Below are positions 6,881 to 12,408 of a DNA stretch of 64,000 nucleotides, one piece after another (the first letter of the stretch is position 1; every line of letters starts with the position of its first letter). The notes beneath the pieces were generated by a model, which worked only from the letters and a program-made list of their open reading frames with translations, did no database searches and was not told where the DNA came from. The position numbers and the translations under genes are program-made. Source of the stretch: Escherichia coli (GTDB lineage: Bacteria; Pseudomonadota; Gammaproteobacteria; Enterobacterales; Enterobacteriaceae); NCBI RefSeq assembly GCF_009931435.1, contig NZ_CP043414.1; one strand, 5' to 3'.

Positions 6881-8458
6881 ATGACGGAAAACATTCATAA
6901 GCATCGCATCCTCATTCTGGACTTCGGTTCTCAGTACACCCAACTGGTTGCGCGCCGCGTGCGTGAACTGGGTGTTTACTGCGAACTGTGGGCGTGGGAT
7001 GTGACAGAAGCACAAATTCGTGACTTCAATCCAAGCGGCATTATTCTTTCCGGCGGCCCGGAAAGCACCACCGAAGAAAACAGCCCGCGTGCGCCGCAGT
7101 ATGTCTTTGAAGCAGGCGTACCGGTATTCGGCGTTTGCTATGGTATGCAGACCATGGCAATGCAGTTGGGTGGTCATGTTGAAGCCTCTAACGAACGTGA
7201 ATTTGGCTATGCGCAGGTTGAAGTCGTAAACGACAGCGCACTGGTTCGCGGTATCGAAGATGCTCTGACAGCAGACGGTAAACCTCTGCTCGATGTCTGG
7301 ATGAGCCACGGCGATAAAGTTACCGCTATCCCGTCCGACTTCATCACCGTAGCCAGCACCGAAAGCTGCCCGTTCGCCATCATGGCAAATGAAGAAAAAC
7401 GCTTCTATGGCGTACAGTTCCACCCGGAAGTGACTCATACCCGCCAGGGGATGCGCATGCTGGAGCGTTTTGTGCGTGATATCTGCCAGTGTGAAGCCCT
7501 GTGGACGCCAGCGAAAATTATCGACGATGCAGTAGCCCGTATCCGCGAGCAGGTAGGCGACGATAAAGTGATCCTCGGCCTCTCTGGTGGCGTGGATTCC
7601 TCCGTGACTGCAATGCTGCTGCACCGCGCAATCGGCAAAAACCTGACTTGCGTATTCGTTGACAACGGCCTGCTGCGTCTCAACGAAGCAGAGCAGGTTC
7701 TGGATATGTTTGGCGATCACTTTGGTCTGAACATTGTTCACGTTCCGGCAGAAGATCGCTTCTTGTCAGCGCTGGCTGGTGAAAACGATCCGGAAGCAAA
7801 ACGTAAAATCATCGGTCGCGTTTTCGTTGAAGTATTCGATGAAGAAGCGCTGAAACTGGAAGATGTGAAGTGGCTGGCGCAGGGTACTATCTACCCTGAT
7901 GTTATCGAATCTGCCGCGTCTGCAACCGGTAAAGCTCACGTCATCAAATCTCACCACAACGTGGGCGGCCTGCCGAAAGAGATGAAGATGGGCCTGGTTG
8001 AACCGCTGAAAGAGCTGTTCAAAGACGAAGTGCGTAAAATTGGTCTGGAGCTGGGCCTGCCGTACGACATGCTGTACCGTCACCCGTTCCCGGGACCAGG
8101 GCTTGGCGTTCGTGTGCTGGGCGAAGTGAAGAAAGAGTACTGCGACCTGCTGCGCCGTGCTGATGCCATCTTCATTGAAGAACTGCGTAAAGCGGACCTG
8201 TACGACAAAGTTAGCCAGGCGTTTACCGTGTTCCTGCCGGTACGTTCTGTTGGCGTAATGGGCGATGGTCGTAAATACGACTGGGTTGTGTCTCTGCGTG
8301 CCGTCGAAACCATCGACTTTATGACCGCACACTGGGCACATCTGCCGTACGATTTCCTTGGTCGCGTTTCCAACCGCATTATCAATGAAGTGAACGGTAT
8401 TTCCCGCGTGGTGTATGACATCAGCGGCAAGCCGCCAGCGACTATTGAGTGGGAGTAG
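6881..8458 (+). CDS. guaA: GMP synthase (glutamine-hydrolysing)
   Basis: 525 aa [25 protein letters not shown]...; 68 bp downstream of guaB. Confidence 0.97.
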
Positions 8459-8500
8459 GACTGGCTATAAATAGTAAATTAAGCCTTTCCAACTAACTTT

Positions 8501-8532
8501 AATGCCAGTCAGTTTGCTGACTGGCATTTTTT
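8501..8532 (+). terminator. Intrinsic terminator of guaBA
   Basis: 12 bp perfect stem (AATGCCAGTCAG / CTGACTGGCATT), 4 nt loop, then a T6 run; 43 nt after the guaA stop. Confidence 0.75.
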
Positions 8533-8752
8533 ATTGGTTTTTCATTGAGTTTATGACTTCTATTTTTAAGGCCGTAACTCTATAACATCGGCTATGGCCT
8601 AAAGATAAAAGCCATTACCAACAAAATGGCGGTATTCCAAAACAGTCTAGCCGGAAGTGCTTACAATGAGATCGATCAAATCGACAAATGAGATACTGGC
8701 CGTTGTGAGCGCCCGGCAACCGTAGCCGTAGGGGGCGAATTTAATGGCTTTG

Positions 8753-9529
8753 TTATGAGCCATTGGTAATCGCACCCATGACAATTTGAAAGAGTTCTTC
8801 TGCTCGATTAGTGGAGCCAATTGCACCTCTTTCTCTCGCCATTCTCTTGTGCTCTGGTAGATCTGAGGACGCATAGATCATAAAAGGAGTTTTGTCTCCC
8901 ATTGCGCGTAATCTTTCTAGTAAGACATAACCTTCTTGCGCCCCTTCTTTGCGATCCATATCCGAAATAATAGCTGCAAACTTATTTGTTTTTAACAATT
9001 CCAAGGCTTCGTCAGTTGAAAGAGCTAAAGCGAACTCTATTCCCTGTGCCTCAAATGCCTGTCTTTCGTAAACATTATTTTCTGGTCGATCATCCACCCA
9101 TAAAATACGATTTCGCCATTTTTCATGCTTACTCTGCCGTTTTGCATTGGATACAACGTTGACGATTTTTTGCAGTTGGCTTTCAGTGACCCCTGCACTA
9201 TTTTCAGGCTGTTTTGCTGTGGCGGCGGTCAATGATGCTGCTGTAGCTATTTGCGCTCTTAAAAAATTATTTTCATCTTTGAAATCTGACGGCCCGTAAA
9301 GCTTATTATGATGTTTCGCAACAAGCCAGAGAAAGCCAAGAAACACAATGACAGGAAAGAAAACCATGAAATAAATAAGGGGAGCTATATGCTCTGATAA
9401 GCCATTACCAAAGCCAACGACGAAAGAGGCAAATCCATAAACGAGAACAATAAAGAGTGCAATGATACCAAGAGGGCTTTTGGTAAATCCTATTGCAGTT
9501 TCAGCAAATTTCTCTGGTTCCATATCCAT
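8753..9529 (-). CDS. Membrane-anchored receiver-like (CheY-fold) protein: two predicted TM helices plus C-terminal pseudo-receiver domain
   Basis: 258 aa ORF. Hydrophobic stretches at about residues 19-41 and 48-72. Residues about 141-252 align by eye to CheY (ILWVDD for the beta1 acidic pair, IISDMD for the phospho-acceptor Asp, IYASS for the Thr/Ser position), but no lysine at the K109-equivalent position. Low GC, about 40 percent. Confidence 0.55.
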   Translation of the reverse strand: MDMEPEKFAETAIGFTKSPLGIIALFIVLVYGFASFVVGFGNGLSEHIAPLIYFMVFFPVIVFLGFLWLVAKHHNKLYGPSDFKDENNFLRAQIATAASLTAATAKQPENSAGVTESQLQKIVNVVSNAKRQSKHEKWRNRILWVDDRPENNVYERQAFEAQGIEFALALSTDEALELLKTNKFAAIISDMDRKEGAQEGYVLLERLRAMGDKTPFMIYASSDLPEHKRMARERGAIGSTNRAEELFQIVMGAITNGS

Positions 9530-9616
9530 CCTCAGTATTGCTCATAACACAGTTAAGTTGTATTAGATCAGACCTGATCTGACAATTACCGGCTATTTAT
9601 AAAGGTATCTGTCAGA

Positions 9617-10012
9617 TTACATCTGGCTTAAGTTTTTCTCATCCCAGATGTGCTTTCCATCAAGTAACGTTTCCATCGGCGTTCGGCCACTGCACATTTT
9701 TCCCTGATGGGTTCGCTCATTATTATAGTGAACCCGCCATTCATCAAGAACCGATTGTAATGCTTCAAGATCATCATATAACTTTTTGCGGAACGTCACC
9801 TGATAAAACTCGTTCAGTATCGTTTTATGGAACTGCTCGCAGATACTATTGGTCTTAGATGACATTGCTTTCGTTTTCGTATGCTCAATATCATTTATCG
9901 CCAGATAAAGCTGGTAATCATGCTGCTCCACTTTACCGCAATCTCTTGGTGTATTGAGAGGCGGGTTATAAAATAAATACTGATACCATGAGGGCGGATC
10001 AATCGTGGTCAT
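9617..10012 (-). pseudogene. 3' remnant of a DDE (rve-type) transposase gene
   Basis: 131 aa ORF whose C-terminal part (SSKTNSICEQFHKTILNEF...HYNNERTHQG...GRTP) matches the integrase-core C-terminus typical of IS481/IS3-type transposases. The N-terminal two thirds of a transposase are absent and the ATPase gene abuts the truncation point. Confidence 0.55.
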
Positions 10013-10027
10013 AGTATCAGGTCATTC

Positions 10028-11542
10028 TCATGGGTTTATTGCGTCCCTGAAGATGACGTCGCTGACCATCTCTCCTCCAAGAAAATCGATCAACATATTC
10101 GAGTTTTCAAGGTCTTCTCTGGTCAATGCCCCGATTGCTTGTCCAACTACTACCTCCCAAGGTTTTTTACACTCAACAATAGCACAGACGAGTTGGCGGA
10201 TTTTCTTGATCTTCTTGTGACGCAATCGGTCGTTCGATTCCATTAGTTCTGCAATCAACGCTATGTCGGAGTGTGTTTGATTATCCTCAACCCATTTTTT
10301 GGCTGCGTCTACAAATTCCACCCATGTAACATTCATTACTGCAAGGCATGAATCAGTCAAAAGAACATTTTCGATAGCGTAGCATCGTAAGCGATAGCGT
10401 TTAAGAGGTAGGCGATGTTCAAGCGACTTGTTGATTACACCATCGCCATCACGAAGGGAAAAGGCGATTGGATTGTCATAGAGTGTACTAAGGAGGTCTA
10501 CGCAAAAATCCTCAAGTTGACTCTGTTGATCTACGCTACCTGCTAGTACGGGAAAGATTTTTATTCGACCCTGTGATGTTCTGGCCGCTTGTTGCCAGAC
10601 TCGTTCGTCGTCCTCTCCTTCCAAAATTAATGCAGCGTCTTCGCTAAGAGAAAGCGATAGGGGGTGCCCGAAGAATGGTGCAATCTTTCGAAGTTCATCG
10701 CTGGCCGGTATCAATGAGATTTCATTTACTGCAAAGCTCTTCGTGCCGATTGATACATATGGGGAGGCGGCAAGAGAACAGACGAGCGGGGAACTATGGG
10801 TGGATAAGCATATGGCAATACTGTTCGCGTGTGTTCTAAATTCGTCGAGCATACTGATTATCAGCTTGCCCAGTCTAGCTTGGAGGTCGGGGTGCAGATG
10901 TACATCAGGCTCATCGAGGAGGAGTACGTTGAATTTCTCCGGATCTATTGTGTCGAAGAAATAGATGATTTCCGCGGCTAATGCAACCGCTTCCGATTCA
11001 CCGCTACTGATTTGGGCCGGATCAATAATCTGACCATCTACAAGTGATCGAAACTCATAATCGACATTACCCATCTCGAGCGAAATGTTAGTGAGAAGCT
11101 GATTAATTTTACTTAATCGGTCTGTCTGAAAGTTTCGCGTTAGATCAGTTCGAATTTCCGGAGTATTGGCAAGTCGACGTAAGTAAAGCGTCTCGGCCTC
11201 GCGAAATAGCATAGCCGATGCAGCTTTGAAGTTGCTTGCCTGATTAACTGCCCGAGTGTGCCTCAGCCATTCGGGGTTGTCGCTCATATTTGTGAGGACG
11301 GTGCCATCACGCTTGAACGATCCTGCTCGCTCTGGACTTACATACCGGACATAAAATTGCTGCTTGTTCTGGCTGATTGTTTGTTCGATATCGCGAAGGA
11401 AACGACTTTTTCCCGCACCGTTTCGGCCCATAATTATGTTGATGTTGTTTAAGCCGTAAAGTCGGCCAATTTGGCTAGATAACTCGCTTACTTTCAAGAT
11501 TGTAACTCCATTTCTTGTTGCCACATACGGTAACAAATACAC
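10028..11542 (-). CDS. ABC-type ATPase fused to TOPRIM-like nuclease motif (OLD-family / Gabija GajA-like), candidate anti-phage protein
   Basis: 504 aa ORF. Walker A GRNGAGKS (residues 39-46, nt 11405-11428), signature-like SSGESE (179-184), Walker B VLLLDEPD (206-213), H-loop-like STHS (247-250), TOPRIM-like Glu in LILEGEDDE (E308) and DxD in LRDGDG (D365/D367). Start codon uncertain: GTG at 11542, or a TTG at residue 16 preceded by GGAG. About 43-45 percent GC. Confidence 0.6.
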   Translation of the reverse strand: MYLLPYVATRNGVTILKVSELSSQIGRLYGLNNINIIMGRNGAGKSRFLRDIEQTISQNKQQFYVRYVSPERAGSFKRDGTVLTNMSDNPEWLRHTRAVNQASNFKAASAMLFREAETLYLRRLANTPEIRTDLTRNFQTDRLSKINQLLTNISLEMGNVDYEFRSLVDGQIIDPAQISSGESEAVALAAEIIYFFDTIDPEKFNVLLLDEPDVHLHPDLQARLGKLIISMLDEFRTHANSIAICLSTHSSPLVCSLAASPYVSIGTKSFAVNEISLIPASDELRKIAPFFGHPLSLSLSEDAALILEGEDDERVWQQAARTSQGRIKIFPVLAGSVDQQSQLEDFCVDLLSTLYDNPIAFSLRDGDGVINKSLEHRLPLKRYRLRCYAIENVLLTDSCLAVMNVTWVEFVDAAKKWVEDNQTHSDIALIAELMESNDRLRHKKIKKIRQLVCAIVECKKPWEVVVGQAIGALTREDLENSNMLIDFLGGEMVSDVIFRDAINP

Positions 11543-11800
11543 TAACTGAATAGGTGCGTTGATGCCTCATTTTGTTCACATCTATGTTGAAATTAGTGAT
11601 GTGAACGAGCTAAGGACTCTATTAGGAGTAGAGCGGCCATATTGTTCGTCTGAACAGCCTGTAGACAGCTCTATTATTGAGACATGGTATTTTTCGTGGT
11701 ATCTGCTAAGTAGTTTGTTTCAAGGCATTGATTTATTTATATTTTATTTTCTCATTGATAGCTGAGTGGGAATGATTTGATCCCTGCACTATGAATTAGC

Positions 11801-11830
11801 AAAACCCTCTGTTACTACAGAGGGTTTTTT
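11801..11830. terminator. Bidirectional hairpin terminator downstream of yfgI, at the islet boundary
   Basis: AAAA-CCCTCTG-TTACTA-CAGAGGG-TTTTTT; the A-tract/T-tract flanks allow termination in both directions. Confidence 0.55.
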
Positions 11831-11868
11831 ATACTCACGAATCATAGGATTGAAGTTACTGACATCGC

Positions 11869-12408
11869 TTAGTTAAACCAGCTGTCCGATTTGTTCTCTT
11901 CTGCTTTGCCCACGCTTTTCATCAGATCGCGACCGCCTTCAGTCATATTCCTGTTTGCGTCAGCTTCAGATTGCACCACATCGGTTTGCGCAGCTTTGTG
12001 CTTCAGTTCCTGATCGATAAATTCGTTTTCTCGCTTAACGCGGGCTTCTTCTTTCGCCAGCGCCAGTTTTTGTTTCTGAATCTCTAAGCTGCGTAGCTCA
12101 TCTTCATAACTTTGATCGCGTTTCTTGTCCGCAGTGGCTTCGGCGTCCAGTTTATCCTGACGAGCTTTCTTATTTGCCGCTGCCGTTGCCGCTCTTTTGT
12201 TAGCGGCGGCCTGGGCGTTTGCGCGACGTTGCTTCTCTTGCTGGATTTCCCTGTTGCGCTCCGCGACCCATTCGTCATGCTGCCTTTGCTCTTCATTTTT
12301 ACCTTGCTGTTCCGCTTCTGCGACAGCAGAGAGTTGATCCTGCAATGATGAGGCGATAGCCGGATAGCTTAAGGAGGCTAAGATGGCGCAAAGAAAAACT
12401 TTCTTCAT
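11869..12408 (-). CDS. yfgI: Periplasmic protein YfgI
   Basis: 179 aa, signal peptide MKKVFLCAILASLSYPAIA, charged K/E/Q-rich body; synteny with yfgH. Confidence 0.85.
   Translation of the reverse strand: MKKVFLCAILASLSYPAIASSLQDQLSAVAEAEQQGKNEEQRQHDEWVAERNREIQQEKQRRANAQAAANKRAATAAANKKARQDKLDAEATADKKRDQSYEDELRSLEIQKQKLALAKEEARVKRENEFIDQELKHKAAQTDVVQSEADANRNMTEGGRDLMKSVGKAEENKSDSWFN

Follow-up and report, generated by a model that had tools for sequence, protein, structure and literature searches.

Nucleases pairing an ATPase with a TOPRIM domain, among them OLD, Gabija, retron Eco8 and PARIS, are a major theme of anti-phage immunity, and how the ATPase controls the nuclease is debated. To our knowledge, all of the characterised enzymes of this kind carry large inserts or partner proteins. 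In the two-gene PARIS system AriA holds AriB inactive until a phage protein frees AriB, which then dimerises and cuts tRNA-Lys (PMC11464382; PMC12409363), and fused PARIS forms have already been described (PMC9122126; PMC11464382). The class 1 OLD proteins (P2 Old, Thermus scotoductus OLD (TsOLD) and Vibrio cholerae OLD (Vc OLD)) are encoded by a single gene, with an ATPase at the N terminus and a TOPRIM domain at the C terminus in 500-600 amino acids (aa) (PMC12392090, PMC10568477), and in the TsOLD structure a dimerisation domain is inserted in the ATPase (PMC10568477). Vc OLD and GajA, the Gabija nuclease, nick DNA (PMC10568477, PMC12392090); P2 OLD is reported to cut tRNA (PMC12445682). 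The gene described here lies at positions 10028..11497 on the minus strand of a 64,000-nucleotide stretch of Escherichia coli contig NZ_CP043414.1, called the window below. Its product, which probably acts as an ATP-gated defence nuclease, belongs to a family whose single chain of about 490 residues lacks both insert and partner, and is in effect a fused, insert-less relative of the PARIS pair AriA/AriB. The ATPase-TOPRIM architecture and fused PARIS-like proteins were thus known; the new variant is a compact branch without a dedicated PADLOC or NCBIfam model, carried as a single gene bounded by attachment (att) sites.

Gene boundaries and conserved motifs

The program-made list of open reading frames (ORFs) placed the gene at 10028-11542 on the minus strand, with 504 aa from a GTG at 11542. 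The RefSeq version of the gene, WP_000868467.1 ('AAA family ATPase'), is 489 aa long and corresponds to a TTG at 11497 in the window. A GGAG lies 7 nt 5′ of this TTG, the homologues start at the same position, and M1 is nearly invariant in an alignment of 82 family members with 25-80% identity to the query. The start is likely to be TTG 11497, giving a coding sequence whose stop codon occupies 10028-10030 and which is 45 nt shorter than the GTG reading frame. With this start, the residues numbered K45, E308, D365 and D367 in an earlier note on this DNA become K30, E293, D350 and D352, and the 489-aa numbering is used throughout.

The earlier note, made from the letters and the ORF list, had proposed an ABC ATPase fused to a TOPRIM domain on the basis of the motifs GRNGAGKS, SSGESE, VLLLDEPD, STHS, LILEGEDDE and LRDGDG. 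Each motif was found where it had been placed. The Walker A motif or P-loop, G24-RNGAGK-S31 (11405..11428, minus strand as for all motifs of the gene), aligned to the Walker A of AriA, and its K30 and S31 are invariant in the 82 members. The ABC signature S164-SGESE-169 (10991..11008) aligned to the AriA 'SSGE' motif; S164 is invariant, and S165, G166, E167 and E169 are each at least 90% conserved. The Walker B motif and D-loop, V191-LLLDEPDVHLHPDLQ-206 (10880..10927; D195, E196), aligned to the Walker B of AriA, PtuA, GajA and TsOLD, and the H-loop T233-H234-S235 (10793..10801) contains the invariant H234 and S235. The full set of residues invariant in the 82 members is K30, S31, R57, S164, D195, P197, Q206, H234, S235, E293, D350 and D352, while E196, E376 and N377 are at least 90% conserved. 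Judged by this alignment, invariance at 25-80% identity confirmed that the motifs are not chance resemblances.

The first 260 residues make up a compact ABC nucleotide-binding domain in which every catalytic motif is intact. Pfam matched this half to AAA_15 (2e-10) and AAA_21 (2e-9), and both families matched in 82/82 members. The last 215 residues make up a TOPRIM domain, in which five acidic residues are conserved, and after it a conserved helical region of basic character. The TOPRIM core spans residues ~286-380 (10358..10642), with E293, D297, D350, D352 and E376 (then N377), and the helical region spans residues 381-489 (10031..10357), with the conserved basic and aromatic positions H409, K431, R434 and W447-E448.

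Consistent with this division, an AlphaFold model built from the 82-sequence alignment (pLDDT 93.7, pTM 0.87) has the alternating pattern of a TOPRIM fold: strand 288-292 ending at E293, a helix, strand 314-318, a helix, strand 345-349 leading into D350-G-D352, and strand 365-369. Beyond these strands lie C372-YAIEN-377 and an all-helical tail. Because the sequence is very well conserved, the predicted structure is a confident one. The invariant motifs, the Pfam matches and the modelled fold thus bore out the proposed fusion, and the C-terminal region was predicted to be of TOPRIM type, its top fold matches being AriB and the OLD TOPRIM domains.

Between the two domains lies a family-specific loop, F276-GHPLS-281 (10655..10672), recognised from the alignments and the model. 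Across the diverse set H278 and L280 reach at least 90% conservation, and in the C-terminal alignment, with its own numbering, G22, H23, P24, L25 and S26 are invariant. The loop is the sole low-confidence stretch of the predicted model (pLDDT 68-71), and no counterpart to it could be identified in OLD, GajA or AriB.

Some homologues are named 'ABC-type branched-chain amino acid transport ATPase', and weak ABC_tran Pfam matches are also present in the family, as a transporter ATP-binding subunit would have. This identity is effectively refuted. The C-terminal 215 residues are of TOPRIM type, the AAA_15, AAA_21 and defence-ATPase matches stand far above any transporter match, and no permease or binding-protein gene is conserved nearby, so that the cognate permease which would have spoken for a transport ABC family was not found.

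Relationship to PARIS, OLD and Gabija nucleases

When the family profile was searched against all chains of the Protein Data Bank, the best match was AriA (E=1.1e-15), followed by the retron PtuA-type ATPases (1e-14 to 1e-10), the Eco8 OLD nuclease (2e-12), GajA (4e-12) and TsOLD (2e-9). The AriA match fell into two pieces, profile positions 7-39 aligning with AriA 19-51 and positions 102-236 with AriA 304-433. About 190 extra AriA residues between the Walker A and signature motifs are therefore absent from the present protein, and it is in this span that the coiled-coil and trigger-binding inserts of AriA (IS1, IS2) fall. Indeed, the model has only short helices within residues 60-135 and no long coiled coil. 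The distance from Walker A to Walker B is 165 residues here, compared with 354 in AriA (K39 to E393; PMC11464382) and ~240-250 in TsOLD and GajA, the latter values being approximate ones estimated from alignment offsets. The earlier note had remarked that P2 Old and GajA are longer. At 489 aa the protein is indeed the shorter one, and its small size is explained by an ATPase without the AriA insert and, by the same approximate arithmetic, without those of GajA and TsOLD. In size the ATPase comes near a transporter-type nucleotide-binding domain.

Searches of the defence-system models gave a similar picture. The top PADLOC matches to the ATPase region alone were PDC-M01A (1e-17) and AriA (3e-15), then PtuA, GajA and AbiLi, and the sole model spanning both halves was the fused AriAB, aligned over residues 85-396 (E=2.7e-14, 50.8 bits, 44% of the profile). 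In NCBIfam no family came near its cut-off for this protein, and matches in PHROGs were to the ATPase region alone, in families of unknown function.

The C-terminal half was less readily placed. Its Pfam match was a weak one to DUF4435 alone (TOPRIM-like, the AriB family; E=0.28), and the Pfam family OLD-like_TOPRIM (PF20469) was not matched by the query protein. Across the family DUF4435 was matched in 8/82 members at E<=1e-3 and 21/82 at E<=0.1, compared with 1/82 and 3/82, respectively, for OLD-like_TOPRIM. Of the Pfam domains that the earlier note had anticipated, those of the ATPase were found, and the OLD TOPRIM domain was not. A sequence profile of the C-terminal domain gave zero matches to solved structures even at E<=10. 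A separate model of this domain (residues 256-489; pLDDT 90.0) was then the basis of a Foldseek search, in which AriB ranked first and a class 2 OLD second, weakly (E=0.04-0.05), with OLD C-terminal domains in second, third and fourth place. The C-terminal helical region is likewise nearer to AriB than to OLD. The metal-binding residues of AriB are E26, D30, D88, E90 and E122 (PMC11464382), and E293, D297, D350, D352 and E376 appear to match their acidic spacing, a comparison of spacing alone and not of superposed structures.

An affinity to PARIS is thus indicated by three independent lines, namely the ATPase sequence, the fold of the nuclease domain and the DUF4435 matches of some members. 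The closest solved relatives are AriA and AriB rather than GajA or P2/Ts OLD, the link in the nuclease half being distant. The earlier note had named OLD and Gabija GajA as the model architecture; the superfamily was right, and the nearest proteins proved to be those of PARIS, as the AriA match (1.1e-15) compared with those of GajA (4e-12) and TsOLD (2e-9) indicates. The comparison with OLD and GajA structures that it proposed favoured them for the whole protein, for which the Eco8 OLD nuclease and GajA were the top Foldseek matches (E~1e-8), and not for the C-terminal domain, where AriB was first.

The differences from PARIS are nevertheless substantial. The protein has 489 aa, compared with ~770 aa for AriA and AriB together (464 + 305) and 694 positions for the PADLOC fused profile, and the C-terminal domain is ~90 residues shorter than AriB and has no detectable sequence similarity to it. 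Activation by release and dimerisation of AriB cannot apply to a fused chain.

By the context-based definition (PMC12392090, PMC10568477), a single gene that encodes an N-terminal ATPase followed by a C-terminal TOPRIM domain is 'class 1 OLD-like', and the protein could be an ordinary member of that class, a stand-alone enzyme that nicks or degrades replicating phage DNA in the manner of Vc OLD, TsOLD and GajA. The single-gene layout agrees with this reading (PMC10568477, PMC12392090), as do the TsOLD match to the ATPase (2e-9), the Eco8 OLD and GajA whole-protein matches and the OLD C-terminal domains that follow AriB in the structural search. The nearest outgroup also points this way: a plasmid-encoded protein of 619 aa with 29% identity and the same compact ATPase, it matches OLD-like_TOPRIM at 3e-10. 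Several features do not agree with it. AriA and AriB rank above OLD and GajA for the two halves of the protein, OLD-like_TOPRIM was recognised in 1/82 members compared with 8/82 for DUF4435, the helical insert bearing the dimerisation domain of TsOLD and GajA is apparently missing (~165 vs ~240-250 residues, approximate), and 489 aa is below the 500-600 aa range. Moreover, P2 OLD is reported to cut tRNA, so that a DNA target can no longer be read from the name 'OLD'. The protein is on this evidence unlikely to be an ordinary class 1 OLD, a reading that departs from the one retained here chiefly in target and family placement; if it were one, the family would add one more clade to defence annotation. 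The family in fact misses several defining features of each named class, namely the insert or dimerisation domain, the length range and recognition of the TOPRIM domain by Pfam.

Absence of a conserved partner gene

The neighbourhood was surveyed in ~45 loci, from seven genera of close relatives and from distant lineages (Cyanobacteria, Bacteroidota, Actinomycetota, Verrucomicrobiota, Parcubacteria). All ORFs within 5 kb were clustered, and large abutting neighbours were scanned against NCBIfam and PADLOC. The only recurrent neighbours were guaA and guaB. No conserved partner gene emerged, the abutting genes being unrelated (parE, rlmD, genes for a major facilitator superfamily transporter and a Dsr1-like protein, and genes of unknown function), and no recurrent helicase, reverse transcriptase or separate nuclease was present near the gene. 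Members at 33-55% identity, from Cyanobacteria, Bacteroidota, Actinomycetota and others, do not lie by guaA and have unrelated neighbours. Among the neighbours found elsewhere were a HipA toxin, a Phd/YefM antitoxin, a STAND NTPase, the Dsr1-like protein, an integrative and conjugative element (ICE) and prophages.

The gene was thus a stand-alone one, with no neighbour conserved across the survey, as the earlier note had thought possible; its other suggestion, a partner other than a helicase, gained no support. The same note had seen no GajB-like helicase, and indeed none adjoins the gene in the window or is conserved near its relatives. This separates the gene from Gabija, with which it shares the two-domain order and an alignment from the signature through the TOPRIM glutamate (profile positions 162-300 with GajA 257-392, 4e-12). 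It differs from the retron (class 3) OLD nucleases in that the islet that carries it contains no ORF for a reverse transcriptase and no Rfam match was found in 8400-11900. The lack of a conserved partner in the ~45 loci is a point of likeness to class 1 OLD.

Distribution and selection

A word-indexed search returned 856 relatives. The best 120 of the 856 were full-length at 66-99% identity and came from Enterobacterales, Pseudomonas, Rhizobiales, Sphingomonadales and many metagenomes. When 1.84 billion cluster representatives were searched exhaustively with a profile, 197 clusters came up at E<1e-30, nearly all of 470-520 aa and matching end to end. In E. coli the gene and its islet are rare, being carried by 27/5,426 complete genomes (0.5%).

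The gene is intact and under strong purifying selection, with dN/dS of 0.05-0.14 against enterobacterial and Pseudomonas orthologues. The protein shares 80% identity between E. coli and P. aeruginosa or Vreelandella, compared with 71-72% for GuaA, even though synonymous sites have nearly reached saturation. It is unusual for an accessory gene presumed to act in immunity to be conserved above the adjacent core enzyme.

The guaA islet and its att boundaries

The window is an Escherichia-type segment in which xseA, guaB and guaA are followed by yfgI, yfgH, yfgG, pdeF, ppx and ppk. Comparison with K-12 delimited a 3.3-kb islet between guaA and yfgI (8459..11775), with a GC content of 44% vs ~53% in the flanks. 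Relative to the empty K-12 site, the islet begins right at the guaA stop codon. It contains three ORFs, all on the minus strand, encoding a membrane-anchored receiver-domain protein, an IS481 fragment and, last, the ATPase-TOPRIM protein.

The islet is bounded by two att-type repeats on the plus strand. The proximal repeat, TGAGTGGGAGTAG (8446..8458), forms the present guaA 3′ end, as indicated by the K-12 comparison and a pattern search; the distal repeat, TGAGTGGGAATGA (11763..11775), matches the K-12 guaA end and is a relic of the original one. The pattern search gave these 2 matches vs 0.01 expected. Both repeats contain GAGTGGGA, the core of the repeats flanking guaA-associated islands with P4-type integrases (PMC7775301). 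The islet resembles such islands (e.g. ICERspD18B) in its insertion at the guaA stop codon and its GAGTGGGA direct repeats, and differs from them in that no integrase, alpA or transfer genes are left. Because no integrase is present, the islet is a decayed or cis-mobilisable guaA island.

Between the distal att relic and the start codon lies a non-coding leader of ~265 bp (11498..11762, minus strand), delimited by blastn block boundaries and by alignment. The leader is conserved together with the gene in six genera, at ~265-280 bp from E. coli to P. aeruginosa, with equivalents in locus L005 (7705-8000) and also in L008, L062, L064 and L066. It contains no ORF conserved across genera, no Rfam family and no consensus sigma-70 promoter, and may hold integrase arm sites or an unusual promoter. 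The block of DNA conserved in the six genera consists of the att relic, the leader of ~265-280 bp, the gene and ~80 bp downstream.

Klebsiella, Serratia, Enterobacter and Pseudomonas also have this att-bounded module of ~1.9 kb. Among the Gammaproteobacteria examined, the gene invariably lies just past the guaA 3′ end and convergent with it (E. coli, K. aerogenes, E. bugandensis, S. marcescens, P. aeruginosa and Vreelandella); for E. mori, the fetched locus shows only a prophage on the guaA side. In one P. aeruginosa strain a 1.93-kb unit between two att copies is all that lies beside guaA, and a single gene likewise makes up the Vreelandella unit. Other P. aeruginosa strains have, after the unit, a second att copy and beyond it an ICE (loci L002-L004, 9640-17473) with genes for TrbI, CagX, VirB8 and TrbL, and, nearest the cassette, a 1,341-aa HTH-STAND NTPase. 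In S. marcescens (L064, 7780-9622) genes for a HipA-family toxin and a 184-aa protein lie between guaA and the cassette, another sign that the guaA site collects toxin or defence cargo. Prophages lie beside the unit at guaA in E. mori (L066, 9544-11447) and in E. coli KC-Dl-1 (L069, 1-11913), in the latter between guaA and the islet; holins, a GH19 endolysin and a DUF2514 protein are among their gene products, joined in L069 by a glycosyl hydrolase family 28-related protein. The att arrays of several genera imply that the gene is the outermost unit of a tandem array formed by repeated integration at one att site. In the tables of a survey of E. coli defence islands, in which guaA is named rather than in the main text, guaA-yfgI is integration hotspot #10, occupied in 121/1,276 E. 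coli genomes (PMC10121019). The module at guaA is a tidy example of a lone defence-type gene that persists and spreads at an integration hotspot.

Proposed activity

The features described above are best explained if the protein is a self-contained, single-chain nuclease switch, that is, an ATP-gated defence nuclease with a leaning towards tRNA, a reading that we consider probable from the sequence and the model. Two chains would pair head-to-head, with ATP sandwiched between the Walker A motif of one and the SSGES signature of the other. This pairing would bring the TOPRIM domains together or let them part, so that the ATP state would gate a two-metal nuclease. Since the effector is covalently tied to the ATPase, activation would proceed not by nuclease release but by a conformational change within the oligomer, and, with no release possible and no trigger-binding insert, sensing and activation would be unlike those of two-gene PARIS. 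Infection or the entry of a mobile element would switch the nuclease on, a conserved host nucleic acid would be cut, and growth of the infected cell would stop.

By analogy with AriB and P2 OLD, the target may be tRNA, to which we give somewhat less than an even chance. The leaning, a weak one, comes from the nuclease domain, whose nearest relative is AriB; high conservation across distant hosts would also fit a universally conserved target such as tRNA, without amounting to proof. DNA nicking, as by Vc OLD or GajA, is the alternative and is rated only a little less likely. A more specific proposal, that the family is a minimal form of single-chain PARIS-type immunity with a different activation logic, able to sense and kill with neither the trigger-binding coiled coil of AriA nor release of the nuclease, and spread as a ~1.9-kb integrase-less att cassette that borrows the guaA-specific integrases of co-resident prophages or ICEs, is put forward tentatively, as it is rather unlikely to hold in all its parts. 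In either form, the family could serve as a simple model for ATP-state gating of a TOPRIM nuclease and could show whether a fused PARIS-like protein works without effector release.

Several observations weigh against a role in defence. No family match was found in the phage collection, in phage or satellite genomes, and effectively none in the plasmid collection, where one record is really a 4.9-Mb E. coli chromosome and two others are distant outgroups. PARIS, unlike this family, is frequently carried on phage satellites. For an immune gene, an E. coli-P. aeruginosa identity of 80% compared with 71% for GuaA is high, the protein is not covered over its full length by any PADLOC model, and WP_000868467.1 was not found in the literature searched by accession. 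The prophages integrated beside the islet indicate that the ATPase does not prevent lysogeny by those phages. Most of the islands listed for hotspot #10 in the survey tables have no predicted defence system and are mostly Uetakevirus prophages and integrative and mobilisable elements (PMC10121019). The proposed function rests on sequence, a model and analogy, and dimerisation, gating, target and trigger are all put forward by analogy with characterised systems.

The same observations would suit a non-immune role, either in maintenance of or conflict between guaA elements (addiction, att-site exclusion, processing of recombination intermediates) or in cellular DNA or RNA housekeeping. The fixed place of the gene at the distal att relic in six genera with a conserved leader, the very strong purifying selection with conservation above GuaA, and the absence from the phage and plasmid collections would all be expected of such a gene, and Cran1, an OLD-family ATPase of archaea with a part in the cell cycle, is a non-defence precedent (PMC12796447). 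However, presence in 0.5% of complete E. coli genomes argues against housekeeping, and the prophages and the ICE that integrated at the same att despite the gene argue against site exclusion. In addition, the distant members (33-55% identity) lie away from guaA among unrelated neighbours, and all detectable homology is to defence ATPase-nucleases. A non-immune role is on balance quite improbable, and an ATP-gated defence nuclease is the reading retained here.

Other features of the islet

The receiver-domain protein (8753-9529, minus strand; 258 aa, 256 aa in RefSeq) matched Response_reg (3e-7) and, weakly, cREC_REC, and has two hydrophobic N-terminal segments and no output domain. As a sensor or membrane effector it could form a two-gene system with the ATPase-TOPRIM protein, and this domain content would suit such a part; E. 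coli and K. aerogenes have both genes on one strand. Among the genera examined, however, it accompanies the ATPase-TOPRIM gene in these two only, and is not beside it in Enterobacter, Serratia, Pseudomonas, Vreelandella, alphaproteobacterial or distant loci. The conserved DNA module stops ~80 bp past the ATPase stop codon, and an IS481 fragment lies between the two genes in the window. Such a system is very improbable.

The IS481 fragment is the C-terminal part of an IS481-family transposase (9617-10012, minus strand; NCBIfam 9e-23) and is a pseudogene in RefSeq. It is absent from the K. aerogenes islet, which is otherwise collinear.

Just inside the islet, 3′ of guaA, a strong 12-bp hairpin is followed by a T run (8501-8528, plus strand). 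This hairpin is now probably the guaA terminator, replacing the K-12 hairpin, which is kept at 11800-11828 beside yfgI.

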